From contig CAYZSS010000013.1 of the NCBI GenBank assembly GCA_964480435.1, positions 1 to 17,698 of the forward strand: DNA of 17,698 nucleotides, given 5' to 3'. The notes beneath the pieces are model-generated. The model saw nothing but the letters and a program-made list of their open reading frames with translations. It was not told where the DNA came from and did not search any database. Numbering within the stretch: position 1 is the stretch's first letter; each line of letters opens with the position of its first letter. Shown piece by piece: positions 1 through 16,562 of this stretch. The DNA comes from an uncultured archaeon. Lineage in GTDB: Archaea; Iainarchaeota; Iainarchaeia; Iainarchaeales; 0-14-0-20-30-16. Both the position numbers and the translations under genes were made by a program.

Positions 1-703
<703 letters not shown>

Positions 704-852: not shown

Positions 853-873
853 AAATGACTCTAAATTATAAGT

Positions 874-1995
874 ATGGTTAAAGATACTAATTTTACTGTC
901 AATCCTTGGGAAGTTCAGGGAAATATAGATTATTCTAAACTCATTAAAGACTTTGGGCTTGAGCCTATGGGGAAATTGCCTCAAAAGGTTAAGGAAAACA
1001 TTCTTTTTAGAAGAGGATTTGTATTTGCCCACAGAGATTTCTCAAGAATATCCAAATGCATTGAAGAAAAGAAGCCTTTTGCAATGATGACCGGTCTAAT
1101 GCCCTCAGGAAACATGCATTTTGGGCACAAAATTGCAGCAGACCAAATAATCCTATACCAAAACCTAGGAGCCAAGGTATACATCGCTGTTGCGGACACA
1201 GAAGCCTATAACTCCAGAAACACAAACCTGGAAGAGCTAAGAAACACCGCAATCGACCAATACCTAGTAAATTACATTGCTTTAGGATTAAAGCCAAAGA
1301 ATTGTGATTTTTATTTCCAAAGTTCAAGAAGCAAGGACGGAAAGAAAGCATCAGCCTACTATACTCTAGCAAACAGGCTAGCAAGGCATGCAACCTTTAA
1401 TGAGTTTAAAGCAGTATATGGAGAAATAAGCCCAGGAAAGATGGCATCTTCATTATTACAGGCATCAGATATGCTACACCCTCAGCTGAATGAGTTTGAT
1501 GGTCCAACCCCAACCATTGTACCTGTTGGAGCCGACCAAGACCCACATATAAGATTAACAAGGGATATTTCCCAAAGGATAAAAACTAATAACTTTATTC
1601 AAATAAGTTCAACTTATCATAGATTCTTGCCCGGATTAGGAGGAGGAAAGATGAGTTCCTCAGACCCAACAAGCCACATAGCTTTAAGCGAGAACCCAGA
1701 AAATGTAAAAAAACTCATCAACAAATATGCTTTTAGTGGCGGTCAGCCAACTCTAGAAGAGCACAGAAAGAAAGGTGGAAACCCAGATATTGATGTTTCT
1801 TATCAATACCTAACTTATATGGAAGAAGATGACAAAAAGCTTGCAAAGATTTACAATGATTACAAAAGCGGTGCTTTACTTTCAGGAGAAATAAAAGCTT
1901 TAGCTATTGAGAAAATTAGTTCTTTCCTAAAAGGTCATGAAAAAGAAAGAGAAAAAGCAAAAAAAAGAATTAATGAGTTTATTCTAAAGAGGTAA
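874..1995 (+). CDS. trpS: Tryptophanyl-tRNA synthetase, archaeal/eukaryal type (class I aaRS)
   Basis: 373-aa ORF. The N-terminus, VNPWEVQGNIDYSKLIKDFG, is typical of archaeal/eukaryal TrpRS. It has the HIGH-type motif PSGNMHFGH and the KMSKS-type motif GKMSSS. AT-rich antisense ORFs (778-1032, 981-1199, 1007-1393) are shadows. Confidence 0.92.
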   Translation: MVKDTNFTVNPWEVQGNIDYSKLIKDFGLEPMGKLPQKVKENILFRRGFVFAHRDFSRISKCIEEKKPFAMMTGLMPSGNMHFGHKIAADQIILYQNLGAKVYIAVADTEAYNSRNTNLEELRNTAIDQYLVNYIALGLKPKNCDFYFQSSRSKDGKKASAYYTLANRLARHATFNEFKAVYGEISPGKMASSLLQASDMLHPQLNEFDGPTPTIVPVGADQDPHIRLTRDISQRIKTNNFIQISSTYHRFLPGLGGGKMSSSDPTSHIALSENPENVKKLINKYAFSGGQPTLEEHRKKGGNPDIDVSYQYLTYMEEDDKKLAKIYNDYKSGALLSGEIKALAIEKISSFLKGHEKEREKAKKRINEFILKR

Positions 1996-1999
1996 AAAA

Positions 2000-2638
2000 A
2001 TGTTAGAAAAAAGACCTACAAAGAATTTATTAGTAAGAGGCGAAGAAGCAGAGGTTTTTAGATACGATGAAAGAACTAGAAACAAAAAAAGAGATATAGT
2101 GAGAATAAAACCAATGGTATTAAACGCAAGAAAATCTGCTTTTGCTAAATTCAGAAAATTAAAATTAGCAAACGCTATTTTCCCAGAATTATTTATTACT
2201 CCCACAAGATCAATACACTCAAAAGAAACCCTTGATGGCACTAATTATTTAATGTCTCGTTATGAAGAAACTACTCCAGAATATGTTGACTTTGTTAAAG
2301 CTTTTTATTCTTGGTTAAGGAATAGAAAAAGTAGCTTTCCTAGTGACCACCCACATATGGTTGAATATAATAAAAAAATACGATATATTAGAGAGCTATT
2401 AGAGTCAGCAGGAATTTCTGCTCAACTTCATCCAGCAAATGTAGGTTTTAGACCAGATGGTTCCGCAGTATTATTTGAAATAAACGAAATTGATATAGCT
2501 AAAGCGAGCATACATATCTACTATATGCCACAATCAAAACAAAAAAGACTGGCAGAAAGGGAACTCGCAAGATATAACCGATTTATAAAAGCCCATAATT
2601 ATCAAAATCAGACCAAAATTCTCCGTAATCCTATTTGA
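2000..2638 (+). CDS. Hypothetical protein, translationally coupled to trpS, with weak resemblance to a degenerate RIO/Bud32-like kinase
   Basis: 212-aa ORF. Its ATG lies 4 nt after the trpS stop, and AGAGGT overlaps the trpS stop as a Shine-Dalgarno site. Only loose motif resemblance exists: LVRGEEAEVF resembles a glycine loop, and AQLHPANVGF...VLFEINEID resembles a catalytic loop and metal loop with the catalytic Asp residues missing. Function is not established. Confidence 0.6.
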   Translation: MLEKRPTKNLLVRGEEAEVFRYDERTRNKKRDIVRIKPMVLNARKSAFAKFRKLKLANAIFPELFITPTRSIHSKETLDGTNYLMSRYEETTPEYVDFVKAFYSWLRNRKSSFPSDHPHMVEYNKKIRYIRELLESAGISAQLHPANVGFRPDGSAVLFEINEIDIAKASIHIYYMPQSKQKRLAERELARYNRFIKAHNYQNQTKILRNPI

Positions 2639-2769
2639 AATAGAGCACATTGACTTAGAAAACGCAGAAAAATATGTTAAAAATTTACCTGAATCAAGAC
2701 AAAAATTAATGGCCTTAAGAGAAATAGTTAAATATAAAAGGTACTTATCTATATATATAAAGAGTTGAT
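2450..2769 (+). repeat. Diverged tandem duplication (period 160 nt) of the 3' coding module of ORF 2000-2638. The second copy is open in the +1 frame.
   Basis: Ungapped alignment of 2450-2580 against 2610-2740 gives 83/131 identical nt by my count. Copy 1 encodes RPDGSAVLFEINEIDIAKASIHIYYMPQSKQKRLAERELARYNRF. Copy 2 is open from 2589 to the stop at 2766-2768 and encodes RPKFSVILFEIEHIDLENAEKYVKNLPESRQKLMALREIVKYKRY. Copy 2 has no start codon near its beginning. Confidence 0.8.
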
Positions 2770-2773
2770 ATTT

Positions 2774-3730
2774 ATGCCTAGAGAACCGAGTAGATTTAAA
2801 AGAGCAGTTGTTGCGGGAACTATGGCGGCAAGCTTTGCTTTAGGTGGGCAAGCCGCAGCAAGAGAAGCTGCGGAAAGAGCACAATTAAGAGAACATGCAA
2901 AACAAGTTGAAATAGCAAGAGAAGCAGAAAGACATACTTCAAGCGATTTCAGAGTAAGAGGTAGCGAAATAGAAAAAAGAGAACTATTTAGACAAGGCCT
3001 TGAACAAGGAAAAAGATTACGAGGAATATCAAAAAATGACGAGGCAAGATATCTTAAATTAATGGATAAATACCAGAAAGGACAATTAACTCCAGATGAA
3101 GCAAGAGAAATGGCTAATGCAATTAATGCAGAACTAGGTAAAGAGGCAAAAATAAGTATTGTTTCTGGTCTAGAAATAAAACAGATGGGATTAACAGGCG
3201 ATATTACTAAAATGCCAAAGTATGCTTGGCACGCAGTTCTTAATTTAGAAGAGCATTATGTTTTAGTCCCTTTAGCAGAATTAATGATGTTATTTACCTA
3301 CTTAGGGCTTGCAAGAAAAATAAGGCAAAGAGGATTTTCTAAAGTATTAGAAACCGATGCAAGCTGGTCACATATAAGAGAATTTGGAGATTTATCCACT
3401 TTAGGAAAAATTGGTTTACTTCCTTTAGCTATAGTTGTAGCAAATAACCCAATTAGTATTGGATTAGCGTTAGGAGCCGTTGCAAACCCAAAAGTAAGAT
3501 CCCAAATGGCACAATGGTTTAGTAAAAGAAATAGAGGTAGCAGTTCTTATACTCCTGAAAGAACAGCAAGAAATAAAGGTCCAGGTACTGGCACAAGATT
3601 AGCTGAATACCTATACAAAGGAGATAAAGAAGAACCAACAGTAAGAGACATCAGAGACCATTGGGAAGACAGAGCAAAAAATGCCTTAGATAGACTTGCT
3701 GGATTTGATCCCAAGAAAAGAAAAAAATAA
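2774..3730 (+). CDS. Hypothetical membrane protein: N-terminal hydrophobic anchor, charged coiled-coil-like region, central hydrophobic helices, basic tail
   Basis: The track ORF starts at TTG 2765, and the first ATG is at 2774 (MPREPSRFKRAVVAGTMAASFALGG...). Hydrophobic stretches are AVVAGTMAASFALGGQAAA, YVLVPLAELMMLFTYLGLA and IGLLPLAIVVANNPISIGLALGAVA. No family was recognised. Confidence 0.7.
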   Translation: MPREPSRFKRAVVAGTMAASFALGGQAAAREAAERAQLREHAKQVEIAREAERHTSSDFRVRGSEIEKRELFRQGLEQGKRLRGISKNDEARYLKLMDKYQKGQLTPDEAREMANAINAELGKEAKISIVSGLEIKQMGLTGDITKMPKYAWHAVLNLEEHYVLVPLAELMMLFTYLGLARKIRQRGFSKVLETDASWSHIREFGDLSTLGKIGLLPLAIVVANNPISIGLALGAVANPKVRSQMAQWFSKRNRGSSSYTPERTARNKGPGTGTRLAEYLYKGDKEEPTVRDIRDHWEDRAKNALDRLAGFDPKKRKK

Positions 3731-3732
3731 AA

Positions 3733-3749
3733 TTTCTTTTTTTATTTTT
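3733..3749 (+). terminator. Oligo-T terminator after ORF 2774-3730
   Basis: tttcttttttttattttt begins 3 nt after the TAA stop (3728-3730). Archaeal RNA polymerase terminates at oligo-T tracts. This is a convergent gene junction with the minus-strand methyltransferase gene. Confidence 0.5.
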
Positions 3750-3769
3750 CAACTTAGATTTATACAAAA

Positions 3770-4405
3770 TCAGTTTCTTATTTTTTTAATTAACAGCAAG
3801 CCATTATCAATTTGAAGAGGATAACTGATTATTCTATTATCATTTTTTACCGTATCTAAAAATTTTGTCATATATTTTTTATAATTAGTAATATTATCTG
3901 CTACAATAATACCCCCAAGCCTAAGTTTAGGAAATACCTGTTCATAGTATTTATGGTAATCTTCTTTTTTTGCATCAATAAAAACAAAATCAATTTTCTT
4001 TTTGAATTTTTTTAATGCAGAAAAAATATCTTCTTCAAAAATAGTTATTTGTTTTTCTAACCCAGCGGAAACAATATGTTCTTTTGCCAATTTTATTTTT
4101 GGTTTAAACACCTCAATAGAATAAACATGCCCTTTTGTTTCCTTAGCCCCAAGACCAAACCACATACCAGAGTAACCTATAGAAGTGCCAAGTTCAAGAA
4201 TAGTTTTTGAACTTGTAGATACTACTAAGAATCGCAAAAATTCAGCAGTTGATCTTGAAACCTGCCAAGCATAAATAACGCCTTTAGTTTTATTTTTGGT
4301 AACTACATCTGTGTAATTTTTTGTTGGCACCCAGTTAATTGTTTTCCCTAGCTTTTCAACATCTTTAGAAACTCTTTCAAAATTATCTAAAAAACTTTGA
4401 TTCAT
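3770..4405 (-). CDS. Class I SAM-dependent O-methyltransferase (caffeoyl-CoA OMT / Methyltransf_3-like)
   Basis: Motifs are ILELGTSIGYSGMWF (SAM motif I), FVFIDAKKEDYHKYYE and LRLGGIIVADN, which match the FIDADK..Y / GG.IV.DN signature of family-3 O-methyltransferases. I prefer ATG 4405 (MNQSFLDNF...) because it follows a GTGAT Shine-Dalgarno site and lies 4 nt after the upstream stop. The track start, ATG 4444, would overlap the upstream gene by 35 nt. Confidence 0.8.
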   Translation of the reverse strand: MNQSFLDNFERVSKDVEKLGKTINWVPTKNYTDVVTKNKTKGVIYAWQVSRSTAEFLRFLVVSTSSKTILELGTSIGYSGMWFGLGAKETKGHVYSIEVFKPKIKLAKEHIVSAGLEKQITIFEEDIFSALKKFKKKIDFVFIDAKKEDYHKYYEQVFPKLRLGGIIVADNITNYKKYMTKFLDTVKNDNRIISYPLQIDNGLLLIKKIRN

Positions 4406-4409
4406 TATA

Positions 4410-6830
4410 TCACTTCTTAAATGCACTTGCTGTTTTTCCTGCATCCCAGGTTACCCTTGGTCTAATCTTTACTAACCAAAGCTTTTCAGAATTATCATCC
4501 AAGATTAATGCATATCCTTTTGCTCTGGGCATTCTTGCAAAATATTTATCCATATCCTCATGTAAATAACTTGGTCTTAGTGCAGACACAGCATCAATAT
4601 CTGGTTTTGCAGTCATTCTCATACTTAAAAATAAATCACACTGGGAAATTGCATCAGGATGTAATTTCTCTGGTCTCTGAGTTGCTAACAATAAACTCAA
4701 TCCAGGTTGTCTTCCAACTCTCACCCACTCAAGCAAAACATCTAATGCCATACTTGGTCTATCTTTTGGCATGAACATGTGGGCTTCATCAATAAGCATC
4801 CAAATCATTGGAAGGTCATTCTTTTTTTCTCCTTCCCCAATTAAAGTTATTTCTTCTTTTTTTCTTTCTAACATTCTTTCTTCATACAATCTTTTTCCAA
4901 GAAGAGCAACAATAATTTCTCTTATATTTTCCATCCCTAAAACTTGACCATAAGTTGAAACATCAATAATATTTACAAACCCAGGTTTAGCCATATCTCT
5001 TACCCCTGTTCCTGTTTTTGAAAATATACCCCATGACTCAGCAACATCAAATCTATTTTTCAAACTTACTCTTACATCTTTATCTGTTTCCTGCATCATA
5101 TCAATTGTAGCTTGTATTTCTTTTATTCCATAATAAGTTCCAAAAGTTTCTTTTGCTTTTTCAATTACATCCAACAATAATGATGCTTCTTTGTCGTTCC
5201 AACCAAGTTTGAACATTGAGAACCATTCCATTGGATCAAGATCAGAAGTTTTTATTGTAAATGCATCGTCCACAGGCATTTTATTTGTTTTATAAAAATC
5301 TAGTTTTCCTTGTGGAACTAAAACCCTTAGATTCTCCATTCCTTGTGGTTCCAAACCCCATTCCCTAATTATTGATTCATCTTCTTTATTTGCTAATTTC
5401 ATACTCCAAAAAATTCCAACAGTATCAATAACAAAAATAGACATTCTATTTCTTATTTCTGGCGGAAGATTAGAAAAACCTTCAATAAAAACCGACATCG
5501 CGTAGCTCTTACCACTATTGTGACTTATTATGCCATTAGCAATAAAAGAATGATTTTTTGGTACTTGTAAATCATAAACTTTTTTTATCCCTTTAATTTT
5601 GCTTATCTTTATTATTTTTTGGAAAAAGGACGTACTATCTAAGTATTCTGTTGATTTTCTTTTTTCCACCTTGTTAAATTTTCTTTTTTCTAATCTATTT
5701 TGTTTTTCTTTCTGGAAAAAACTTATTTCTGTTCTATATTTTTTTACTGAACTATAATCAGAAATGTCTAACTCATAGGACGTGAATTTTTTACCATTAC
5801 AAGTAGTTTTTTTTGTTCTAATACAAGATTGAATTCCAAAATAAGCCAACAATAAATTTAGGTCTCTGATTAATCCAATTGAATTGGAATAATAATTTAC
5901 TCTTACACCTTTTTTTTCGACGTATCCATCACAAGAAAATAATGCCTTAATAAATTCACTTTTAAATTTATTAGAAGATTCCCAAACTACTTTAGGAATA
6001 CGTATTATTTTATCTTTTTTTCCACGCGGAACCCCCAACTTTTCAAAGAAATGTACAATTTTTTGTTGTTCTGTTGTTACTATTTTACAATTTTCTTTTC
6101 CTTTTTCTTCGATTCTAGATTGAATTCCAAACTCTAAATCTAAATCTTTTTTCGTCCGAGTTAATATTTCTTCATCCCCAGCTATAATCCTTACTCTTGC
6201 TTTATTACCATTATATAGGTAACCCTTGCCATCTTTATAAATTCCAGACCTTATTTGCATACTACCATCAGATAATAAGAATCCCAGCAGCCTTGCAACC
6301 CTTAAACTATACTTATTTTTTATCTTTATTTCCGGCAGACTATAAACAGTTAAAATTTCATCAGTATCTTTTATTTTGCTTGCTTTAATCCACTCTGTTT
6401 TCTTGTTTCTTCTAATTAATAATGGATGCTCAGTAGTAGCTATTAACTTTTGCCCATCCTTAAATTCAAATTCACGCATCTCTTCGTTATTAGCCACATC
6501 GTAAATGATAAGCTTTGCTTTTTCCCATTCAAATTTGTTTTTTTCTATATTATAAGATAATACCTTATCTTTAGGTAAAAAAGTTGATATTTGTTTATAA
6601 CCCTTATCAGTAAAAATAAGAGTATCTTCAACAAGACAACCCCTTTTACCACAAATAAGTACAACATGGGGACTTGCAAGATCAACAAATACTTTTCTAC
6701 CTAATACTGGATTTTCTCCAGAGCTCATTACTACTTTTGCTAAAAATCCAGTTCCTTTTGCACCATATTTGTTAATATCTTTTTCTGGTCTTCCAACAAT
6801 AATATCTTCAGCTGCTAATTCAAAACCCAT
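4410..6830 (-). CDS. HerA/DUF87-type (FtsK-HerA superfamily) P-loop ATPase, intein-containing (paralog 1); extein about 430 aa
   Basis: After removing the intein, Walker A reads ICGKRG|SGKSYAMS. Walker B is WMLIDEAHMFMP. The sensor motif is LLLATQRPEKL and the C-terminal motif is VKIRPRVTWDAG. The track start is GTG 6839. ATG 6830 (MGFELAAEDIIVGRPE) lies 4 nt after a GTGAT Shine-Dalgarno site. Confidence 0.85.
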   Translation of the reverse strand: MGFELAAEDIIVGRPEKDINKYGAKGTGFLAKVVMSSGENPVLGRKVFVDLASPHVVLICGKRGCLVEDTLIFTDKGYKQISTFLPKDKVLSYNIEKNKFEWEKAKLIIYDVANNEEMREFEFKDGQKLIATTEHPLLIRRNKKTEWIKASKIKDTDEILTVYSLPEIKIKNKYSLRVARLLGFLLSDGSMQIRSGIYKDGKGYLYNGNKARVRIIAGDEEILTRTKKDLDLEFGIQSRIEEKGKENCKIVTTEQQKIVHFFEKLGVPRGKKDKIIRIPKVVWESSNKFKSEFIKALFSCDGYVEKKGVRVNYYSNSIGLIRDLNLLLAYFGIQSCIRTKKTTCNGKKFTSYELDISDYSSVKKYRTEISFFQKEKQNRLEKRKFNKVEKRKSTEYLDSTSFFQKIIKISKIKGIKKVYDLQVPKNHSFIANGIISHNSGKSYAMSVFIEGFSNLPPEIRNRMSIFVIDTVGIFWSMKLANKEDESIIREWGLEPQGMENLRVLVPQGKLDFYKTNKMPVDDAFTIKTSDLDPMEWFSMFKLGWNDKEASLLLDVIEKAKETFGTYYGIKEIQATIDMMQETDKDVRVSLKNRFDVAESWGIFSKTGTGVRDMAKPGFVNIIDVSTYGQVLGMENIREIIVALLGKRLYEERMLERKKEEITLIGEGEKKNDLPMIWMLIDEAHMFMPKDRPSMALDVLLEWVRVGRQPGLSLLLATQRPEKLHPDAISQCDLFLSMRMTAKPDIDAVSALRPSYLHEDMDKYFARMPRAKGYALILDDNSEKLWLVKIRPRVTWDAGKTASAFKK
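5517..6638 (-). mobile_element. Intein (374 aa) with LAGLIDADG homing-endonuclease domain, inserted in the Walker-A loop of HerA paralog 1 between GKRG and SGKS
   Basis: Block A is CLVEDTLIF, with Cys1 at codon 6638-6636. Block B is ATTEHPLL (TxxH). The LAGLIDADG motifs are LLGFLLSDGSM and FIKALFSCDGYV. Blocks F/G are VYDLQVPKNHSFIANGIISHN, followed by +1 Ser. The terminal Asn is codon 5519-5517. I checked both codon positions against the sequence. Confidence 0.88.
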
Positions 6831-6874
6831 AAGTATCACACTTCATTCTATATATGTTAAAATAGTATATAACT

Positions 6875-7135
6875 TTATTTCAAAGCCATTACTACAAACC
6901 CATATTTTTCAACATCTTCTTTTTTCCACATTGTAGCATTTTTTGTTTTCAATACAGAAGTTATTTTCTTTTCTAAAACCCTACCAGTATAATCTTTTGT
7001 TCTGGGGTCCCATTCTTTTAGAACTAAAATGTCCCCTTCTTTGCAATCAAAATCCGCAACTCTTATATCATAAGTTTTGCTTCCGTTTTTTACTAAATCA
7101 AAATACTCTGGCCAACATTTTTTTTCTATTTTCAT
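6875..7135 (-). CDS. DUF3850-like / ASCH-PUA-fold small protein
   Basis: The 86-aa ORF reads KKCWPEYFDLVKNGSKTYDIRVADFDCKEGDILVLKEWDPRTKDYTGRVLEKKIT. This matches my recollection of the DUF3850 pattern (W-PEYF..v..G.KtfEiR.nDRdf.vGD.L.L.Ew....YTGR). A 9-nt gap separates it from the upstream gene. Confidence 0.7.
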   Translation of the reverse strand: MKIEKKCWPEYFDLVKNGSKTYDIRVADFDCKEGDILVLKEWDPRTKDYTGRVLEKKITSVLKTKNATMWKKEDVEKYGFVVMALK

Positions 7136-7144
7136 ATTCTCACA

Positions 7145-7672
7145 TTAATCCATTTTTTCGAATTTTCTTTCATCAAAATGTTCTCTTAATCCATGGAACA
7201 CAATACCATAATTAACATATTTTTTTCCATCAGTATCAATATCATGCCATCTTTTCATTAATTCTTTATAGGGTATATAAGTTCTCAAAAAAGAGGAAGG
7301 ATCTGCAAAATAGATTCTTTTTCTATCATAACCTATTGCAACAACATAATGGCCATCAACCCAGTCTTTTTCCCAGTCAACATGCTTTTTATCAGTCCAA
7401 GCTTGCAAAACAAGTATTACTGGTTTTTTATGTGCCAAGTGCTTCTTCAATTCTTTTAGTGTCATATCATGCACAGTTGCATGCAAACCATATTTTTCTG
7501 CTACTTTCATAATTCCAGAAATAGGGGTGCCATTCTTAGAGGTACCAGCAAGTTTCATGATGATATCCTCTCTTACATCCTTCCCATAATATGCCAACAC
7601 CAATTGCACAGCCTTTGCACCGCAATCATAATTGTAGGTTTGCCTACCCCGAGGAAAATCAATCATTTTCAT
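7145..7672 (-). CDS. Papain-fold cysteine peptidase, C39-like (Peptidase_C39_2-like)
   Basis: Candidate catalytic motifs are QTYNYDCGAKAVQLVLAYYG (Cys), VDGHYVVAIGYD (His) and YFADPS (Asp). The track start at 7732 is TTG. The first ATGs are at 7672 and 7666 (MKMIDFPRGRQ). aaatataaat lies about 25 nt upstream of 7672, which suggests a leaderless transcript. Confidence 0.7.
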   Translation of the reverse strand: MKMIDFPRGRQTYNYDCGAKAVQLVLAYYGKDVREDIIMKLAGTSKNGTPISGIMKVAEKYGLHATVHDMTLKELKKHLAHKKPVILVLQAWTDKKHVDWEKDWVDGHYVVAIGYDRKRIYFADPSSFLRTYIPYKELMKRWHDIDTDGKKYVNYGIVFHGLREHFDERKFEKMD

Positions 7673-7759
7673 AATAGATATATTTCTTTGAAATTTATAT
7701 TTGTTACTATCAAAGTAGGAGCCAAACAGCAAAGGTTAGACAAAAAAATAACAATTTAA

Positions 7760-7800
7760 ACAAAAATAGAAATAATAGAAAAAGTGGCATTAATGCCACT
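7760..7800 (-). terminator. Stem-loop plus T-tract, a likely terminator of the Sm/MinD/HerA operon transcript
   Basis: agtggcattaatgccact (7783-7800) is an 18-nt perfect palindrome. On the minus strand it is followed by TTTTTCTATTATTTCTATTTTTG (7782-7760). Confidence 0.45.
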
Positions 7801-7801
7801 G

Positions 7802-7920
7802 TCTTTCTTTTGGGCAACTAAGAAACCTTTTTGCGTTAAGGCAAAAAGTTTCAGAGCCTGAATAATTTTCCTTTGGAAAATTACTTCTTACTTACCATTT
7901 TCTTTCTTCAAGAAAGAAAA
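7802..7920 (-). other. Series of five consecutive hairpins between the Sm stop codon and the terminator hairpin: a structured 3' UTR or a candidate small RNA
   Basis: I verified the complementary arms by eye. They are 7804-7809/7820-7825 (6 bp), 7827-7834/7841-7848 (ctttttgc/gcaaaaag, 8 bp), 7850-7854/7858-7862 (ttcag/ctgaa), 7863-7871/7875-7883 (taattttcc/ggaaaatta, 9 bp) and 7898-7908/7910-7920 (ttttctttctt/aagaaagaaaa). No ORF is present. Confidence 0.4.
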
Positions 7921-7926
7921 GGGCAG

Positions 7927-8154
7927 TTAGGGAGTTATCATTATCAAAGAGTCTCCTCTTAGCATAGTCTTCCCATATTTAATTTTTACACTGTTGTCTT
8001 CTTCTAGTTGTTCAGCATCATCTAATACAACATTCATGTGTATATCAAAGGCAAGTAATTTTCCTCTTATTTTCACATTTCCTTTCATTAAAACTAATAC
8101 GGATTTTCCTATCCATGAGTTTAAATGATCAAAAGGTCTACTTTCAGTAGTCAT
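7927..8154 (-). CDS. Sm-like archaeal protein (SmAP / LSm)
   Basis: 75-aa ORF. The Sm1 motif is VLVLMKGNVKIRGKLLAFDIHMNVVLDDAEQL and the Sm2 motif is MLRGDSLIMI. A GGGGG Shine-Dalgarno-like run lies 9 nt upstream of the ATG, and a 15-nt gap separates it from the MinD gene. Confidence 0.9.
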   Translation of the reverse strand: MTTESRPFDHLNSWIGKSVLVLMKGNVKIRGKLLAFDIHMNVVLDDAEQLEEDNSVKIKYGKTMLRGDSLIMITP

Positions 8155-8169
8155 AATTATTCCCCCAAT

Positions 8170-8952
8170 TTATTTTTTGTTCTTAGAAAAAATTCTTTTA
8201 ATCCAAGCAAAGAACCCACCTGATTCGTTCTTGAATTCTATTTGAATCCCTAATATTTTTCCTGCAACAGCAAGTACTGCTTTTGATGCCATTGCATTTG
8301 GATTACGTATAATTACTGGTTGTATTTTTTTATAGTAAAATGTTTTTCTTACTTCTTCATCATATGGTATTACCCCATACAAAGGTAATTCAAGCATGCT
8401 AATAATATCTTTTTCAGGTATTTCTCCTTTTAATCCAGCATACATATTAATTATAACTCCAACCGGTTTTGCATTTATTCTTTGTGCAGATATTTTTGTT
8501 TTTAGGGCATCTGCAATAGATAAAGAATGTGGATTCACAACCAAAAATACTTCTGTTGATGATGCCATAGCAGCAAGAGTGTCTTCCCCAATTCCAGCAG
8601 GACAATCCAATAATACAAAATCATATTTTGGAGCCACTTGTTTAATTATATTAGGCAACTTTGTTAAATCTAATCTTTGGGTATCTTGCAATCCTAAAGA
8701 AGCAGGCATAATATTTATTTTTTCAGGACCATCATAAACAACATCCCAAACTCCAGCATCCCCTTTAAGTACATCATTCAAAGTTATTGGACTTGTTTCC
8801 ATTCCGAGTATTAAGCTTAAATTCGCCATTGCCAGATCAGTATCAACTAATAACACTTTTTTTCCTTGTCTTGCCAAAGCAACACCTAAGTTAGCAACCA
8901 CAGTAGTTTTTCCTACTCCTCCTTTTCCTGATGCAAAAGCAATTATTCTCAT
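8170..8952 (-). CDS. minD: MinD/ParA-family ATPase (archaeal MinD-like, SIMIBI class) with a C-terminal amphipathic tail
   Basis: The deviant Walker A is IAFASGKGGVGKTTVVANLG. Further motifs are LLVDTD and a Walker-B-like FVLLDCPAG. The C-terminus, GGFFAWIKRIFSKNKK, resembles a MinD membrane-targeting helix. The track start at 8964 is TTG. ATG 8952 (MRIIAF) follows a GGTGAT Shine-Dalgarno site. Confidence 0.9.
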   Translation of the reverse strand: MRIIAFASGKGGVGKTTVVANLGVALARQGKKVLLVDTDLAMANLSLILGMETSPITLNDVLKGDAGVWDVVYDGPEKINIMPASLGLQDTQRLDLTKLPNIIKQVAPKYDFVLLDCPAGIGEDTLAAMASSTEVFLVVNPHSLSIADALKTKISAQRINAKPVGVIINMYAGLKGEIPEKDIISMLELPLYGVIPYDEEVRKTFYYKKIQPVIIRNPNAMASKAVLAVAGKILGIQIEFKNESGGFFAWIKRIFSKNKK

Positions 8953-8972
8953 ACATATCACCAAAATACTTT

Positions 8973-9443
8973 TTAAATTTTAACAAAAGACATAATTTTT
9001 CTATATTCTTCTAGAAAAATATTTTTACCATAAACTGCAATATCTTTTGATACTGCATTTAACTCAAACTCGCTTAATCTTGCCTCACTCTTTATTAGAT
9101 ACACAAAGTCATCTCTCTCAAACATACTTACCCAGCTTCCCACATTAAAATAAAGAACTTTATCTTTTCTTTTAAACGCTGAAAACATATCGTAAATTTT
9201 GTTTGCTAATTCCAGAATTTCTGGAGAGGATGAATAAAGCAAATTATTAGCTTTAAAAACAACCACGCTATCAATTAAATGTTTTCTTAGTAAAGAGTCC
9301 ACAAATTCATTAAATGTGTTTCTTGATATTTCTGTAACGGAATATTCTTTAGAAACATCTTTCAGATAATTTATTTGTTCTAATGGCAGGTCAGTGTCAT
9401 CAAGGCCCAATATTTTATATACCAATTTTGAAAATATATTCAT
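8973..9443 (-). CDS. Hypothetical protein (156 aa); possibly a roadblock/LC7-like fold, weakly supported
   Basis: The ORF is tightly packed, with its ATG 1 nt after the upstream stop. The alpha-beta-beta pattern ...FVDSLLRKHLIDSVVVFKANNLLYSSSPE...VLYFNVGSWVSMFERDDFVYLIK is only reminiscent of roadblock/LC7. No diagnostic motif was seen. Confidence 0.55.
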   Translation of the reverse strand: MNIFSKLVYKILGLDDTDLPLEQINYLKDVSKEYSVTEISRNTFNEFVDSLLRKHLIDSVVVFKANNLLYSSSPEILELANKIYDMFSAFKRKDKVLYFNVGSWVSMFERDDFVYLIKSEARLSEFELNAVSKDIAVYGKNIFLEEYRKIMSFVKI

Positions 9444-9444
9444 A

Positions 9445-9933
9445 TTACAACCCTATATTACCTAAACCAATTTCCTTAAGCAGAGCATATTTATCCTTAC
9501 TTAGCTCAGATTTATCTATATATTTCTCTACTAAAGACTCTTTATATTCCTTTATGTAATTATCAAAGATTTTCTGCATATTCGCTGATTTTATCAGGAT
9601 TTTATCATTAAAGGTAATAATTAACTCCATTTGTTCATTTGTTAGTCTAAAAACATCAAAACAGCCAAATTGTGAAGCAAAAGAGTTAAAAAATAGCCTA
9701 ATCCCTTCTTCACCATAAATTATTTTATCAAATGCTAAAAATGCATGAGAGCAACCCATTACAGAACCCTGTTTAAAAAACAAAGTAGAATCTTCAAACC
9801 CATAGTTCATTTTTGTTGTTACTGCAATATAACCACTAAAGTTTTTGGATTGCAGATCAGAGATAACTTTCCTAACATCAACTTTTTTTATGTCAATATT
9901 TTCTGCTACTCTTTCACCAACTGGAATATTCAT
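9445..9933 (-). CDS. Hypothetical protein (162 aa); possible PATAN/DUF4388-like domain, weakly supported
   Basis: VISDLQSKNFSGYIAVTTK...STLFFKQGSVMGCSH....IYGEEGIRLFFNSFASQFGCFDVFRL resembles the PATAN pattern L..L....tG.L.v.....g.iyf..G.vv.A.....G.eAl..ll....G.F.f. I prefer ATG 9933, which has a GTGAT Shine-Dalgarno site 6 nt upstream and lies 7 nt after the NYN stop. The track start at 9984 would overlap the NYN gene by 44 nt. Confidence 0.55.
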   Translation of the reverse strand: MNIPVGERVAENIDIKKVDVRKVISDLQSKNFSGYIAVTTKMNYGFEDSTLFFKQGSVMGCSHAFLAFDKIIYGEEGIRLFFNSFASQFGCFDVFRLTNEQMELIITFNDKILIKSANMQKIFDNYIKEYKESLVEKYIDKSELSKDKYALLKEIGLGNIGL

Positions 9934-9940
9934 AAAAATA

Positions 9941-10399
9941 TCACTTTCTCTCTTTATCAAGCACAATAACATAATCCGCCGCATTCTTTAATGCTGATCC
10001 GGAAGATTCATCCACAAGTATTACTGCAACATCTTTTCCATGTTGTTTCGCTTTTACTATTGCTGGCAAAAAATCTGAATCTCTAGTAACCAAACAAATA
10101 ACATCAATATTTGGATTAAACACTGTCTCAGTAGCTTCAACAGCCATCATCACATCAATATCTGAAACACAAACAGCAACTTCAAATCCCTGATTTATTA
10201 CTGCTTCTACTAATTTCCCTGGTGCAAACTGGTTCAGATACACTTTACCAATTTTCATAACCCCAAGTTTATTTATTATACCTTTTACCTTACCCAGGTC
10301 CAAACTAAACTCTTTCCTAAGCATATTTGGGCCATCAATAAATACGGCTACTTTCTTCTCTTTTTTTGTCTTAAATTTATCCCAAACCCTTTCCAACAT
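9941..10399 (-). CDS. NYN-domain (LabA/DUF88-like) protein, a predicted RNase fold
   Basis: The acidic motifs are in the order expected for a LabA-type NYN domain: VAVFIDGPNM, VSDIDVMMAVEA and LVTRDSDFLPAIVKAKQHGKDV. Confidence 0.8.
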   Translation of the reverse strand: MLERVWDKFKTKKEKKVAVFIDGPNMLRKEFSLDLGKVKGIINKLGVMKIGKVYLNQFAPGKLVEAVINQGFEVAVCVSDIDVMMAVEATETVFNPNIDVICLVTRDSDFLPAIVKAKQHGKDVAVILVDESSGSALKNAADYVIVLDKERK

Positions 10400-10438
10400 A
10401 AAAACACCATATATTAGTTATATAAAATGTAATTTAAA

Positions 10439-13400
10439 CTATTCTACTTTATGACCATAATAACTATCAAATAAAGCTACTTGGTTAGACTCCTCATTTT
10501 TAAACATATATTCCTTTCTCAAAAGAGTATCTATGTTTTCTATTTTTATATTTTTCCATATTATTCCAATCAGCGACCTTAAACTCTCCATACTTATTCT
10601 AGGATCAAGTATATGTTCCTGCTCAACTTCCTGCTCCATTAGGTGTATTTCACCAACCGAAGAAAGTAGTTTTAGTTTAGGGTTCTGTGGAACTTCTATT
10701 GTTTTCAACGCAAAGTATACATTCCTTATTCCTCTTTTTTCTTTTCTTACCAATCCTGCAGAAATAAATCTCTCCATCATATTCTTCAGTTTTACTTCTC
10801 CAAAACTACTTAATTCTTCCAAATAAGCAACATCAAACCCTTTATTCTTTGGCAATTTTAAGATTAACCTTAAATCATCTGCATCAAAGGCTTTTATTTC
10901 TGTTAGCCCTTGGGAATAAACAAAGTCATTGTCTATGTTATGTAGAAACTCTATTTTTACTGGGTCAATATAACATTCATTTGTTACAAAACCGCCGTCA
11001 GGGTTATAGATTTTATAATCCACTTTTAGAATTGGCCTATAAACCGTGCTTACAACAAAATTAGTCCAACCAAGTGTTCTCTTTGCAACACCCTCCACCT
11101 GCTCTTTATCATAGGTCTCTTCTAAAACAGCGTACTTAACTTTTTCTCTATATTCTTCCTGCTCTTCTTCTTTTTCAATTGATAAAATATCATCTTCTAA
11201 TTTTGCTCCACTATCCACCAAGGAGCCCAAAAACTTTTCAAACCCAACTGTTGATTTGTATTTCATATTTAGAATTTTTAGTAAAGTTTCCAAAGAATGC
11301 ATATCCAAAGACCCATACCTATCCAGTTTGCCCATTCCGATTTCTGCCATTATTTTCAGCAGGTCTTTTTCTTTGTATTCATATTTTATTTCTGCTGTCT
11401 GGGTTTCTCTTCCCTCGTGTTGTGACATTCTAGGTCTTACTTTTATAACAAATGCTCTGGAAGTTGTTTCAACTCTATCCGCAACCAGAGGAACACCAAT
11501 CTCAAGCCTTTTTATGAATTCTGGTTTCCTAAATTCAGCGGGCACTATTGTTGGGATTCTTCTATACACTGCTTTAATATCATCATCAAAAACTAATTTA
11601 TAAGAAATTAAAGTTCCTACCTGTGACAAAACCCTGGTATCAATTGCCGATGGTTGCTGAGTTGCAAACACCAATGAACAACCTGGCCTTCTTCCTTGTT
11701 TTACATATTCTATTATTGCTTTTGATGCTGGAGTTTCCAAAGACCCAGACGGAATTAAGGTGTGGGCTTCATCAATAAATAACCAAGTTGGAGGAATATC
11801 CATTTCTAAAGTATCTAGTGCTTCACCACCATTACTAAATTTCTTTACTGCTTGCTTTCTAGTTGCAATCTTTCTTGCAGATAAAATTCTTCTGGCAATA
11901 ACACCAACCAACAAAGCAGCAACAGTTTCATCCAAAAAACTAACATCAATTACTGTTAATTGACCTGGCACTGAAATCTCAATTAAGGGAGTTCCCTGCT
12001 TTGCAAAAATACCCCATGATTTCCCTGCTTCAAATCTTGAAATTAATGCTCTCATAGAATCTTTTTTGTAACCTTTTTCTTTTGAGTTTAATTCAGCATC
12101 ATCCCTCAAACAGTTAGTAATATCATCAATTTCATAATTCCCATTTTTTCCTTTTACTATTAATCCAGCTAAAGACCTATATCCATCTCTTACTTTTATT
12201 AAAACTTTTTCTAATAGTAAGCCTAAAGGACTAAATCTATCAATCCCAAAGGTTAATGCCCAATCTTCCGCAGTCAGGAAAGATGGCTGGATTGTAAAAA
12301 CAGCATCATAAGTTTCTTTAGGGGTCTTTGATTTTGCCCCTTCAGGGATAAATACCATTACATTATCCAATCCTTTTGGATCTAATCCCCATTCTCTTAA
12401 TTGTTTTATTTCGCTCTCTTGCCTGTTTGGATATTTCATACTCCAAAATACACCCACAGGGTCAATAACAACCATTCCTACATTTGGATTCTTCATTGCT
12501 AATTCTTCTGCAACAACACCCAAAACATAGGAGTTATGCACAAAAACACTGTTAGCAATAAAATTATGATACTTAGGGATAGTAATATCGTAAACTTTTG
12601 TTTTTCCCTTTATTTCTTTTATGCTTACTATCTCATCCCAAAAAATATCTGAATTAGCCAAAGTAGTTAGTTCTTTATTTTTTAACAAAGCCCCAATTTT
12701 TTGCAATTTATCTCTACCAATATCATAACATTTGCAACTAATTATTGATTTAGGACTTTTGTAGCCATAATCTCTTCCGAGCTTTGCCCAATTCTCTACT
12801 TTTATTTTTTTAAATATTTCTTTAGGGATAGTATCGATATTAGTATTATACTTTATTTTTTCAAGTTCTTTCTTAGCAATTTTTGAGACCTTTTCTTTTC
12901 TTCCATAAAATCCAATTCTATCTATAAAGTCTGCAACAAATCTTCCAGCAATAACAATTTCAAAACTCCTAACATACTTTCCTAAATATTTTACTTTCTT
13001 TTCTCTTATTCTATTCACAATTCCAAATCTTAACAAAAGATGATGAACTTGTTTGATTAAGTCTTCAGAAGAAGAGCTATAAGATAATTGCCAACAGTTA
13101 TTGTAAAATATAGATCCATCACAACTAAACAGCCTATTCAAAAACAAAGCAAGTTTTTCCTTTCTTAATGTAAAAATCTCTTTAGGAATAAATCTTTCCG
13201 GGGACTTTTTCCCGTACAGTTCAACGGATTCCAAGTACTGCACAAGAGAGTTTTTTAGCATTTTTATTTTTGATTCATTAGTAAACATCCCTTTTGAATT
13301 TCTTTTTAGTCCAGAGCAGTCAGTTTTTTTCTTTTTTTGTGCTACTCTAAAACACCCAGCTCTTGAATGGATTTCCACTCTTAAGTTGCTATCAAAATCA

Positions 13401-14419
13401 TTTACTGCTTTCTTAAATTCATCAGAAATTACTTTATCTTCGTTAGAAAATAACACAAAAGAATTACCCATATGCCCTTCTGCAATCAAATATGCCAAAA
13501 GCTTTACTTTATGGTCTTCTAAATTACTTTTCCCAAAAGCAGGGATTTCTCTGGGCGTTGCGATCTTAGTACCTTTCTTTATTTTTTCTGCAGGTTCCCA
13601 ACCATTAATTGTGTACAGAGGATGCTCAGGAGTCAATTTTATTGTTTTTCCTGAATTTAATTTTAGTTCTAATATCTTCTTTACTTCTCTTTCATAAAAG
13701 TTCTTTTTCTTGATTTTTTTAATCTTTAAATTATCATCCATTGCTAATAGTTCTTCATCTTTCTTCAAATCTTTTATTTGCTTTATTTCTCCATTTGCAA
13801 GAATTATCTCTGTTTCCCCTACAAGGCACTTTCCTGATCCTCTGGACCCACATACAAACATTACCTGAGGGTCTAAAGAATCAAAGTAAATTTCTTTTGC
13901 TTCTTCACCATCTTCGTAAACTTTTCCTAAATACAAAGCAGCTTCTTCACCGTATTTTTCAAAAACAGATCTCTTTCTTCCAACCATTGCATGGCCAGTT
14001 AAAGGATTTTCTAAAAAAGTTAAAGGCACATTGCACTTGTTAATTATTTTTGTTACATTATCTTTAATTAGTTCAGCATCAGGAATTCCAAATACAGGTT
14101 CATCACGAGTAGAGTTAGATTCTTCAAGTCCCTCTTCTAAGCTATCTTCACTTTTGGATTCTGTTGTTATTGCATCCTCACTATCAGTATTTTCTTCTAT
14201 TTTCTTTCTTGATGCTCTTTTCTTCTTTGGTTTTATCTCAGTCATAGGCTCTTGATCCTGTGACTCTTGATTAGATTCTTCGGGTATTTCTTTTGTTTCT
14301 GCTACGGGTGTTTCTTCCGGTTCTGCTTTTTCCACAAGATTATTTGAATATACGGTTGTCTTTCCTTCTTTTTTCTCTGGATTCCCAGCCATATCATCAA
14401 ATATATCAAACATTCCCAT
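10439..14419 (-). CDS. Giant HerA/FtsK-superfamily ATPase (paralog 2), 1326 aa: acidic disordered N-terminus, intein-interrupted ATPase core, 316-aa C-terminal extension with a wHTH-like motif
   Basis: The spliced Walker A reads VCGSRGSGK|SYVLG. Walker B is WLFIDEAHTLIP. The sensor motif is LVFATQQPSAI and a further motif is IKVRPRMSQHEG. The core is collinear with paralog 1, for example VGR..KYG...LGKV...D..P.V...CG.RGSGKSY. The C-terminal region carries MERFISAGLVRKEKRGIRNVYFAL. Confidence 0.85.
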   Translation of the reverse strand: MGMFDIFDDMAGNPEKKEGKTTVYSNNLVEKAEPEETPVAETKEIPEESNQESQDQEPMTEIKPKKKRASRKKIEENTDSEDAITTESKSEDSLEEGLEESNSTRDEPVFGIPDAELIKDNVTKIINKCNVPLTFLENPLTGHAMVGRKRSVFEKYGEEAALYLGKVYEDGEEAKEIYFDSLDPQVMFVCGSRGSGKCLVGETEIILANGEIKQIKDLKKDEELLAMDDNLKIKKIKKKNFYEREVKKILELKLNSGKTIKLTPEHPLYTINGWEPAEKIKKGTKIATPREIPAFGKSNLEDHKVKLLAYLIAEGHMGNSFVLFSNEDKVISDEFKKAVNDFDSNLRVEIHSRAGCFRVAQKKKKTDCSGLKRNSKGMFTNESKIKMLKNSLVQYLESVELYGKKSPERFIPKEIFTLRKEKLALFLNRLFSCDGSIFYNNCWQLSYSSSSEDLIKQVHHLLLRFGIVNRIREKKVKYLGKYVRSFEIVIAGRFVADFIDRIGFYGRKEKVSKIAKKELEKIKYNTNIDTIPKEIFKKIKVENWAKLGRDYGYKSPKSIISCKCYDIGRDKLQKIGALLKNKELTTLANSDIFWDEIVSIKEIKGKTKVYDITIPKYHNFIANSVFVHNSYVLGVVAEELAMKNPNVGMVVIDPVGVFWSMKYPNRQESEIKQLREWGLDPKGLDNVMVFIPEGAKSKTPKETYDAVFTIQPSFLTAEDWALTFGIDRFSPLGLLLEKVLIKVRDGYRSLAGLIVKGKNGNYEIDDITNCLRDDAELNSKEKGYKKDSMRALISRFEAGKSWGIFAKQGTPLIEISVPGQLTVIDVSFLDETVAALLVGVIARRILSARKIATRKQAVKKFSNGGEALDTLEMDIPPTWLFIDEAHTLIPSGSLETPASKAIIEYVKQGRRPGCSLVFATQQPSAIDTRVLSQVGTLISYKLVFDDDIKAVYRRIPTIVPAEFRKPEFIKRLEIGVPLVADRVETTSRAFVIKVRPRMSQHEGRETQTAEIKYEYKEKDLLKIMAEIGMGKLDRYGSLDMHSLETLLKILNMKYKSTVGFEKFLGSLVDSGAKLEDDILSIEKEEEQEEYREKVKYAVLEETYDKEQVEGVAKRTLGWTNFVVSTVYRPILKVDYKIYNPDGGFVTNECYIDPVKIEFLHNIDNDFVYSQGLTEIKAFDADDLRLILKLPKNKGFDVAYLEELSSFGEVKLKNMMERFISAGLVRKEKRGIRNVYFALKTIEVPQNPKLKLLSSVGEIHLMEQEVEQEHILDPRISMESLRSLIGIIWKNIKIENIDTLLRKEYMFKNEESNQVALFDSYYGHKVE
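12533..13828 (-). mobile_element. Intein (432 aa) with LAGLIDADG homing-endonuclease domain, inserted in the Walker-A loop of HerA paralog 2 between GSGK and S
   Basis: Block A is CLVGETEIIL, with Cys1 at codon 13828-13826. Block B is LTPEHPLY. The LAGLIDADG motifs are LLAYLIAEGHM and FLNRLFSCDGSI. Blocks F/G are VYDITIPKYHNFIANSVFVHN, followed by +1 Ser. The terminal Asn is codon 12535-12533. I checked both junction codons against the sequence. Confidence 0.88.
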
Positions 14420-14463
14420 TTTTTACACCCTATTGGTTAATTAGAATAATATTTAGTTTCGTT

Positions 14464-14471
14464 ATATAAAA
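14464..14471 (-). promoter_or_regulatory. TATA box (TTTATATA on the minus strand) upstream of the HerA-paralog-2 operon
   Basis: The plus-strand tatataaa at 14464-14471 is TTTATATA on the minus strand, about 45 nt upstream of ATG 14419. GGGTG lies about 6-10 nt upstream of the ATG as a Shine-Dalgarno site. Confidence 0.4.
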
Positions 14472-14514
14472 GGAAAAAAGATATATAAATATAGGGTATA
14501 TTTAGGAAATTATT

Positions 14515-15537
14515 CTAGGCATATTTTGCCTTTCCAGTATTAACAATCAATATTTTCTTATCCTTAGGGATTTTATCTTTCATTTGTAACAGCAAAGCCA
14601 AACCAGAAATTCCAGATGGTTCAAAATTAATTTTCTGTGCTGCTGCAATTTCCATTGCTTTATCCAAGAATTCTTCTTTTAAAATATAAACACTAGATGC
14701 TTGCCCACAAAATCCAGCATAACGATAAAATCTCATCCATTGTTCATCATAGTGTACAAAAGGCAAATGTGGAGAATACAATTTTTCCGCCTTTGATCTT
14801 GGATTATTAGTAGTAACTCCAAAGAAATTACATTTTCTTATTTTTTCTATATCTCCCTTAAATCTTTTATCCTGTTTTTTTGAAGATATTTCTTTTCTAA
14901 CAATATTCAAAATATTTTCATAAAGTTGTCCAGTCCCAAAAGGAACAAAACAATAGTCTGGGCTGGAATTAATTATTTCATAGCTAAGCCAGTCATAAAA
15001 CCGCATTGTTGGATCCAAAGCAATGTTAGAAGTAATATCAAACCCATCTAAATTATGTGTTAAGATTAGTATCTCTTTACTGCCAAATGGTTTTTCACTT
15101 AAATCTGTTTTGTATATTTCACAGCCAATTTTTTCTAGTTTTTCTATTATACTCTTGTTAAGATATTCATCAACCAAAACTTTTAGAGATGGCAATCCAT
15201 ATTTAGCTAACACAGTTTGTATTGCAAATGCTGCAGACCCAGATGAGATTATAGACATTTGGGGTAATTTTGACTTTACTAACCCTTTCTTTTTTGACAT
15301 CAAAAAGTCTCGATAATTTACAATTATTTCCCAAGCCATCCTGTCCTTATGTGTTCCCGTTGGATTATAGCTTTCATCTTTTAACCAAACATTTGTGAAT
15401 CCAGGTACCTTTATTTTATAAGTAGGAGTAGCAGGAAATTTTGGGTTTTCAGGAGGAAATTCTGGTTTGTTAGGGTTATTTTCAGACGGTACAACAATTG
15501 ATTTTAATATTTTTTCTTCTTTCTTTGATAATCCCAT
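14515..15537 (-). CDS. Fold-type-II PLP-dependent enzyme (Trp-synthase-beta / threonine-synthase-like superfamily), divergent
   Basis: LKDESYNPTGTHKDRMA matches the PLP-lysine motif K.E..NPTGSFKDRGA. SSGSAAFAIQ resembles the AS.GN.g loop, and VPFGTGQLYENI resembles the glycine-rich phosphate loop. It has its own AGGTG Shine-Dalgarno site and an upstream TATA-like tttttatatat. Confidence 0.72.
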   Translation of the reverse strand: MGLSKKEEKILKSIVVPSENNPNKPEFPPENPKFPATPTYKIKVPGFTNVWLKDESYNPTGTHKDRMAWEIIVNYRDFLMSKKKGLVKSKLPQMSIISSGSAAFAIQTVLAKYGLPSLKVLVDEYLNKSIIEKLEKIGCEIYKTDLSEKPFGSKEILILTHNLDGFDITSNIALDPTMRFYDWLSYEIINSSPDYCFVPFGTGQLYENILNIVRKEISSKKQDKRFKGDIEKIRKCNFFGVTTNNPRSKAEKLYSPHLPFVHYDEQWMRFYRYAGFCGQASSVYILKEEFLDKAMEIAAAQKINFEPSGISGLALLLQMKDKIPKDKKILIVNTGKAKYA

Positions 15538-15599
15538 CTAAACACCTTTTTTATTATATAATAAATAAGGTAAAATATATAAAAACAGTTTATAACAGC

Positions 15600-16562
15600 T
15601 TACGGCCAATTTCTTTTAAACCAGTAAACTCTTTTGTGTCTTCCATCAAAAACAGTTATTCCATAAGAAGAATCAGCTTTAACAAAAACTACTGGAGAAA
15701 GATATAGCCCAATTACTTTTCCATTATCAAACAAAGGGTTAGTAACATCAAATATGTGCCAAATACCATCCAATTTTACTAAGTTAAAAGCACGAGGTCC
15801 ATTTTCTGCTATTTGCCCACCATTTTCATCTGTATGCTCCAGTTTTATTTCTCCCACAACATACCTTGATTCAATCCCTAATTCCTGTAAAATTAATTGT
15901 GCAAGCATAGAAAGTTCTGAACACATTCCAACTTTTTCTTTTACAAATTCTGATAACTTTTGTGCTGAATCTATTTCAGAATCATAGGTCCTATCCGAAA
16001 TTAATTGTCTCTTTGCTTCACTCTGTTCAAAAGAAGCATATAAGAACTTTGCAACTAAAGCAATTTCTGTTTTTTGGGTTTTAGGAAGATGTGGAGCAGA
16101 ACCAGAATAAGTTTCAATATATTTTTTAACATCAGATATTAATTTTTTTATTTCTTGGCTGTTAGGGTCTATCTTTGTTGCATGCCCAAATGGAGAAATA
16201 GGTAACACATCCCCTTCTTGTAATTCTTTTATAATTCCCCCTCTAAATATCCCCACTGCATCAGAACCATGGCTTTCAGCAGAAACATATTTATCCATAA
16301 ATTTTGCTGCCCTAAAATTTGTTATAGCTCCTCTTGCAAGCAAAATTTTTTCTTTAAAAAGAGGATCTGATTTTATTTTTCTTACTGCTTCTTTTATTTT
16401 TTCTGGATCAGATAAAGTTCCAAATTCTAAACCAAAAAGAGATTCTAATACAGCCATGCTATTTTCTTTTCTTCCATGTGTAGTTTCAGGAGTTAATTTA
16501 TGATCCTTTACCAAATCAGCAATTCTTGCTCTTACTTCCGGCTTTAATTCTCTAAATGGCAT
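15600..16562 (-). CDS. Hypothetical protein with a C-terminal transglutaminase-like (papain-fold) core
   Basis: KVGMCSELSMLAQLILQELGIESRYVVGE ... RAFNLVKLDGIWHIFDVTN parallels the transglutaminase-core pattern G.C..fa.l....R.lGIpaRyV.G ... HAW.EV...g.W..fDpT. The N-terminal ~200 aa were not recognised. Confidence 0.55.
   Translation of the reverse strand: MPFRELKPEVRARIADLVKDHKLTPETTHGRKENSMAVLESLFGLEFGTLSDPEKIKEAVRKIKSDPLFKEKILLARGAITNFRAAKFMDKYVSAESHGSDAVGIFRGGIIKELQEGDVLPISPFGHATKIDPNSQEIKKLISDVKKYIETYSGSAPHLPKTQKTEIALVAKFLYASFEQSEAKRQLISDRTYDSEIDSAQKLSEFVKEKVGMCSELSMLAQLILQELGIESRYVVGEIKLEHTDENGGQIAENGPRAFNLVKLDGIWHIFDVTNPLFDNGKVIGLYLSPVVFVKADSSYGITVFDGRHKRVYWFKRNWP

Follow-up and report, generated by a model that had tools for sequence, protein, structure and literature searches.

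P-loops are the commonest sites of intein insertion (PMC4513877, PMC4760082), and the position immediately after the Walker A lysine, which is that of MCM-a and VMA-b (PMC10643990), has been named the classic P-loop insertion (PMC5050341). Distinct intein alleles can lie very close together in one motif: within the P-loop one residue separates TerL1-a from TerL1-b, and DnaB-a is two residues from DnaB-c (PMC5050341, PMC4760082). Here we consider a 17,698-nucleotide stretch of DNA (the window: contig CAYZSS010000013.1 of assembly GCA_964480435.1, from an uncultured archaeon), in which the Walker A motif is interrupted in each of two large minus-strand open reading frames (ORFs). To judge from the best homologues of both exteins, the window is chromosomal DNA of a DPANN archaeon in the Diapherotrites/Iainarchaeia group. 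The interrupted genes encode a short and a long HerA-like ATPase, paralogous to each other, and we refer to their inteins as intein 1 and intein 2, respectively. The two insertion points differ by three residues (9 bp), and it is very probable that the inteins reflect two independent invasions by pre-existing lineages, each faithful to its own position.

In the long paralog, translation gives the junctions VMFVCGSRGSGK/CLVGETEI...SVFVHN/SYVLGVV (slashes mark the ends of the intein). Insertion is at the classic Walker A site, GSGK^S, between lysine and serine (site b, GK^S/T), and therefore at the position taken by MCM-a, VMA-b, DnaB-b and TerL1-a between the Lys and Ser/Thr of GxxxxGK[S/T], although the hosts of the lineage here are HerA-like DUF87 ATPases of DPANN archaea. 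In the short paralog the junctions are VVLICGKRG/CLVEDTLI...GIISHN/SGKSYAMS, so that the site, GKRG^SGKS, lies three residues upstream, outside the classic GK^S/T allele class (site a, G^[S/T]GK[S/T]), and the fifth Walker A position, which is variable, supplies the +1 residue. The offset is real, because a syntenic locus in Ca. Iainarchaeum (L001; GCA_028710695.1) has both DUF87 ATPase genes free of inteins, with P-loops (VCGSRGSGKSYVLGV and ICGKRGGGKSYTMSV) that are collinear with the window's spliced products; the latter align without gaps against the L001 orthologues and 240 database homologues. When spliced, the two P-loops likewise align gap-free with each other (CGKRGSGKSY in the short paralog, CGSRGSGKSY in the long one). 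A preliminary description of this DNA had reported two paralogous ATPases each with a full-length LAGLIDADG intein in the P-loop, had placed intein 2 at 12533-13828 and the sites at GKRG^SGKS and GSRGSGK^SY, with the Walker A serine as the +1 residue of the long paralog, and had suggested a search for intein-free alleles in related genomes. Translation and Pfam matches agree with the first of these points, the coordinates coincide exactly with the translated junctions, the junctions and the L001 alleles bear out the sites, and L001 itself supplies both intein-free alleles.

Between the two inteins there is no special kinship. They are 27% identical, at 68 bits, which corresponds to E 6.6e-14 in the exhaustive library, and the NCBIfam DnaB-intein model gives intein 2 a score of 239 bits and intein 1 one of 77 bits. 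The LFSCDG and VYD..P..H.FIAN...HN motifs to which the preliminary description drew attention are present as quoted, but its use of LFSCDG and of similarity in blocks F and G as signs of relatedness does not stand, for these are generic motifs, not marks of a special relationship: exact LFSCDG occurs in 25, and H[NS]F[IVL]A in 105, of the 150 nearest relatives of intein 2.

Each intein does, on the other hand, have many relatives at exactly its own site. An exhaustive search seeded with intein 2 yielded 7640 cluster representatives, 659 of them at E<=1e-30 and 3230 at E<=1e-10. Both junctions could be mapped in 103 of the 150 nearest: 87 are at GK^[ST], five at xK^[ST], ten elsewhere (mostly in the DnaB H4 motif) and one at a position resembling site a. 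The hosts include terminase-like proteins and DnaB (ARPSMGK^T), as well as orthologues of either HerA-like paralog. Among the top 120 homologues of the long paralog, six have the intein, in each case at GSGK/C...HN/SY, and its identity to intein 2 tracks that of the exteins (61 vs 63%, 58 vs 56%, and 47-53 vs 46-59%); the orthologues as a whole come from Diapherotrites/Iainarchaeia and most lack the intein, including nearer ones (such as P0001, at 76% identity). Such patchy presence is the pattern that would be expected of a homing element. The short-paralog orthologues P0322, P0324-P0326, P0329 and P0330 also carry inteins of this lineage, all at G[SGT]GK^S[YF]. Because these share 44-49% identity with intein 2, against only 29-31% between their exteins and extein 2, the lineage does seem to have moved between the two paralogs, apparently always to the homologous GK^S site. 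Two short-paralog orthologues (P0321 and P0328, of 1308 and 1300 amino acids) have, besides a classic P-loop intein, a second one in Walker B (VDE/C...HN/CH).

Relatives of intein 1 were sought by word-indexed or pattern-based searches. All 77 protein matches, and about 45 species-representative genomes, have the intein at GKRG^[ST]GKS, with the junction GKRG/C...[HSK]N/[ST]GKSY, in orthologues of the short paralog whose labels are Woese-, Pace-, Nano- or Aenigmarchaeota; no Iainarchaeia label was found among the approximately 45 genomes of the pattern-based search, in which the full-length form sits in precursors of about 810 amino acids. The relatives comprise full-length inteins at 47-53% identity and many mini-inteins of about 145 amino acids. 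Where the inteins share 47-50% identity with intein 1, the host exteins share only 35-40% with extein 1, and none of the 120 closest short-paralog orthologues (57-88% identity) has an intein. Because the histories of intein and extein disagree in this way, and the closest orthologues are all intein-free, horizontal transfer is the most likely source of intein 1 in this genome. The +1 position is Ser or Thr in every intein-bearing orthologue, and in 118 intein-free ones it is Gly in 74, Tyr in 17, and Ser and Ala in nine each. Inteins of the same type (34-39% identity) are found at the equivalent site, YGKTG^TGKT, in Orc1/Cdc6 of DPANN archaea (loci L043, L044, L046 and L047, the match being around 10001-11092 in L043 and L047), and a weaker relative is at ^SGKS in an MCM protein (P0316).

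It is because each intein has so many relatives at its own site, and because the pair are only 27% identical, that we favour two independent invasions, a separate mobile lineage having presumably arrived in each gene. The preliminary description had left the choice between this and the transfer of a related intein from one paralog to a shifted site in the other, and the second option now loses ground. In a neighbour-joining tree of 58 inteins, those of site a form a clade with 100% bootstrap support, which falls outside all the inteins of the classic site, and the site-b inteins of HerA-like proteins, from both paralogs, form a clade with 74-78% support; separate sites and separate clades, then, are found where a single allele shared by both paralogs should show one site and specific relatedness. 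Some considerations weigh against this reading. The inteins sampled for the tree were the top hits of intein 2, so the outlying placement of the site-a clade is partly built in and the tree is supporting evidence only; and the search for relatives of intein 1, being non-exhaustive, could have missed site-a inteins in Iainarchaeia. In a sliding comparison with the L001 orthologue, identity falls only mildly downstream of the intein 1 junction, as it does in other variable stretches, and no clear co-conversion tract is seen. Moreover, all LAGLIDADG inteins share a deep ancestry, and an ancient shift of site somewhere within it is conceivable.

One may also ask whether both inteins are still mobile. 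Many relatives of intein 1 are mini-inteins without an endonuclease, as in the usual cycle of decay, and conditional splicing is known in P-loop inteins such as Pho RadA (PMC4513877), so one or both of the present inteins might be decaying or fixed, either as splicing-competent elements with a dead endonuclease or as regulators of the ATPases through conditional splicing. We think this rather unlikely: both inteins retain the two LAGLIDADG motifs, acidic residues included, in intact reading frames, and their scattered occurrence among close orthologues is consistent with continuing gain and loss.

Appreciably less probable is an ectopic transposition in which one lineage invaded the other paralog three residues away, the two inteins being donor and derivative. 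Both are class-1 LAGLIDADG inteins with similar F and G blocks and LFSCDG, and elsewhere the intein 2 lineage has demonstrably moved between the paralogs. However, hundreds to thousands of clusters are nearer to intein 2 than intein 1 is, the motifs that the pair share are the generic ones just described, and in P-loop DNA the two window genes agree at only 42 of 81 positions. The relatives of intein 2 that have crossed paralogs are all at GK^S, and those of intein 1 all at G^[ST]GK[ST], including the ones in Orc1/Cdc6 and MCM; the earlier hope that these genes would reveal a homing site sliding between paralogs is disappointed. As for the notion that the insertion points are really homologous and the three-residue offset an arbitrary choice of junction (an alternative that the preliminary description proposed to check), it has only the repetitive look of GxxGSGKS to recommend it and can be dismissed practically outright, given junction residues that are unambiguous (G/C...N/S in one case, K/C...N/S in the other) and permit no other assignment, and the gap-free alignments of the spliced products already mentioned.

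Among the nearest parallels are TerL1-a/-b and DnaB-a/-c, which likewise have unrelated inteins at two sites a few residues apart in one ATPase motif; the sites in the window, however, are in two paralogs of one genome and are not alleles of one gene, although in other DPANN lineages the short-paralog family itself carries either allele. In Haloferax, MCM-a and MCM-d likewise form a pair of endonuclease-bearing inteins near each other in a conserved ATPase domain, and raise a similar question of interference (PMC10643990), but they occur together in one gene, whereas the insertion points here are 9 bp apart in separate genes. The preliminary description had allowed that the inteins might prove to belong to alleles already catalogued at these exact sites, and this is essentially how matters stand: both are widespread in public sequence data, although we found no paper on them, and the literature searched yielded no account of an intein in a HerA or DUF87 protein. 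What the case adds is two intein alleles in HerA-like ATPases of DPANN archaea, absent from the searchable literature; these archaea have barely been covered by intein surveys (that of PMC10643990 took in only two DPANN genomes). It also provides a clean example of lineages that stay at one exact position within the P-loop while they pass between hosts (the two paralogs, Orc1/Cdc6, MCM, DnaB and terminases), and it fits the idea that the conservation of P-loop DNA is part of the reason that inteins are commonest there (PMC4513877). The general understanding of inteins is unchanged, and the case is in that sense ordinary, each type of intein being common at its own site in other archaea.

Both elements have the features of complete class-1 inteins (coordinates are collected in Table 1). 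The characteristic residues are C1, TTEH and SHN/S in intein 1, and C1, TPEH and VHN/S in intein 2; the cores of the LAGLIDADG motifs are LLSDG and FSCDG in the former, and LIAEG and FSCDG in the latter. Pfam finds Intein_splicing and LAGLIDADG_3 in each (E 1e-18 and 2e-17 for intein 1, 9e-28 and 5e-15 for intein 2), and the NCBIfam models TIGR01445 and TIGR01443 match the inteins above their cut-offs. Intein 2, as modelled by AlphaFold (pLDDT 87.7), consists of a splicing domain and an endonuclease in a bipartite architecture. The best fold matches of the model are the TliVMA intein (7qss; TM 0.72) and PI-PfuI, with PI-SceI and I-DmoI among the others, and for the splicing domain there are matches to the mini-inteins of DnaB and RecA. 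A Hint fold is thus predicted for intein 2 from the structural model, and for intein 1 from sequence models only. The G+C content of the inteins (0.277 and 0.296, over 5517-6638 and 12533-13828) is below that of the respective exteins (0.338 and 0.346), which fits either mobile elements or weaker constraint.

Table 1. Coordinates of the two HerA-like ATPase genes and of the parts of their inteins (positions in the window)
Feature	Position	Strand	Remarks
Short HerA-like (DUF87) ATPase precursor (paralog 1)	4410..6839	-	809 aa from GTG; mature extein ~432 aa
End of N-extein 1, ICGKRG	6639..6656	-	
Intein 1, full-length class-1 intein with LAGLIDADG endonuclease domain	5517..6638	-	374 aa, residues 68-441
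Intein 1, first LAGLIDADG motif, ARLLGFLLSDGSM	6258..6296	-	
Intein 1, second LAGLIDADG motif, FIKALFSCDGYV	5919..5954	-	
Start of C-extein 1, SGKSYAMS	5493..5516	-	+1 Ser is Gly in nearest intein-free orthologues
Long HerA-like (DUF87) ATPase precursor (paralog 2)	10439..14419	-	1326 aa; mature extein 894 aa
End of N-extein 2, VCGSRGSGK (Walker A through lysine)	13829..13855	-	
Intein 2, full-length class-1 intein with LAGLIDADG endonuclease domain	12533..13828	-	432 aa, residues 198-629
Intein 2, block B, KLTPEHPLYT (TxxH)	13610..13639	-	T, H and P positions invariant in alignment
Intein 2, first LAGLIDADG motif, KLLAYLIAEGHM	13469..13504	-	Acidic residue Glu
Intein 2, second LAGLIDADG motif, LALFLNRLFSCDGSI	13109..13153	-	Acidic residue Asp
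Intein 2, blocks F and G, VYDITIPKYHNFIANSVFVHN	12533..12595	-	Terminal His-Asn
Start of C-extein 2, SYVLGVV	12512..12532	-	+1 Ser = Walker A Ser; same sequence in intein-free L001 orthologue

With their P-loops interrupted, the precursors would be expected to be inactive, and unable to bind ATP, until splicing rejoins Walker A. Splicing by the standard class-1 route would begin with an N-S acyl shift at Cys1 and go on by transesterification onto the +1 Ser; the terminal Asn would then cyclise, and an O-N shift would complete the reaction. The nucleophile would be the Walker A serine itself at site b and the fifth Walker A residue at site a. The LAGLIDADG domains would cut intein-less alleles and so spread the elements, and homing of this kind into intein-less alleles would explain their patchy distribution among orthologues.

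How might the two sub-sites affect each other? In the data seen, the short HerA-like paralog has an intein at site a in some DPANN lineages and at site b in others, but never at both, and no HerA-like gene with both inteins was found either in these data or in a pattern scan of metagenomes (...NG[IV][IV]SHN-[ST]GK-C...). It might be imagined that two position-keeping lineages, moving between host families, compete for the same 9-bp neighbourhood, the site-a intein here interrupting the target of the site-b endonuclease (which is 3.6 kb off, in the long paralog), so that one intein would exclude the other and fix as Ser a Walker A position that is usually Gly; we regard this as a doubtful speculation. 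The single match of the metagenome scan was to a phage terminase, a T4-type large subunit encoded at 498-3990 of a marine metagenome contig (L085; Ga0098052_1007009), which has inteins at both sub-sites, three residues from each other (ASRQ/intein/CGK/intein/STAF), so double occupancy is possible in principle. The second of these inteins is split over two ORFs (a 36-amino-acid N-piece, an intervening ORF of about 107 amino acids, then the C-piece), and resembles the atypically split inteins of terminases; a third intein of the same protein is in Walker B (VDE/C...SN/C).

The host proteins are HerA-like ATPases, but not HerA proper. Pfam finds DUF87, the central domain of HerA, in both, and across the entire ATPase domain their spliced exteins share 29% identity (E 3e-60). 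An AlphaFold model of a short-paralog orthologue (P0121; pLDDT 81) has as its best Foldseek matches HerA of Thermococcus, in complex with NurA (9x1m), and of Sulfolobus (4d2i), at E about 1e-16 (6e-17) and TM about 0.6, and by that model the short paralog is predicted to share the fold of these hexameric translocases, with an N-terminal barrel and a RecA-like ATPase domain. The best NCBIfam HerA score, however, is 46 bits against a curated cut-off of 850, and neither NurA nor Mre11/Rad50 is encoded beside the ATPase genes in the window or in L001, where they are instead clustered with genes for MinD/ParA, NYN and DUF2226 proteins; it is because of these low scores and this context that we withhold the name HerA. 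The long paralog is distinguished by a long C-terminal extension and a variable N-terminus: its residues 1-130 (14030-14419) are acidic, lysine-rich and of low complexity, very variable in length among orthologues, and only 15-50% identical to those of the L001 protein, the ATPase cores of the two being about 90% identical. The ORF of the short paralog opens mechanically at a GTG (6839), but since its orthologues begin at a Met three codons later (MSFELASDD in L001), the true start is probably the ATG at 6830.

A cluster comprising genes for a transglutaminase-like protein, the long HerA-like ATPase, NYN, a DUF2226-like protein, a 156-amino-acid ORF, MinD/ParA and then the short HerA-like ATPase is common to the window (4410-16562) and L001 (3204-11299), and the combination of two HerA-fold ATPases with MinD suggests an uncharacterised module for DNA handling or segregation in these DPANN archaea. 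The long- and short-paralog genes are close together only in near relatives such as L001, not in the loci of P0003, P0080 or P0097, and the long-paralog gene is likewise not near the site-a intein loci examined. A chimeric assembly at the intein-extein joins was considered and appears unlikely, because the frame is kept across both joins and, on either side, the exteins have matching orthologues in Iainarchaeia.

Finally, we draw attention to differences in gene content between the two loci. In L001 the order is transglutaminase-like, long DUF87 (890 amino acids), NYN, two small ORFs, MinD/ParA, LSM and short DUF87 (432 amino acids), with a gene for a class-I tRNA synthetase farther along from the last. 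In the window, where the neighbours of the ATPase genes encode NYN, DUF2226, MinD/ParA, C39 peptidase and ASCH proteins, the place of the LSM gene between MinD and the short paralog is taken by genes for a C39-family peptidase and an ASCH/DUF3850 protein, and, unlike L001, the window has a gene for a pyridoxal phosphate (PLP)-dependent enzyme between the transglutaminase-like gene and the long paralog; the stretches that differ are 6875-7732 and 14515-15537.

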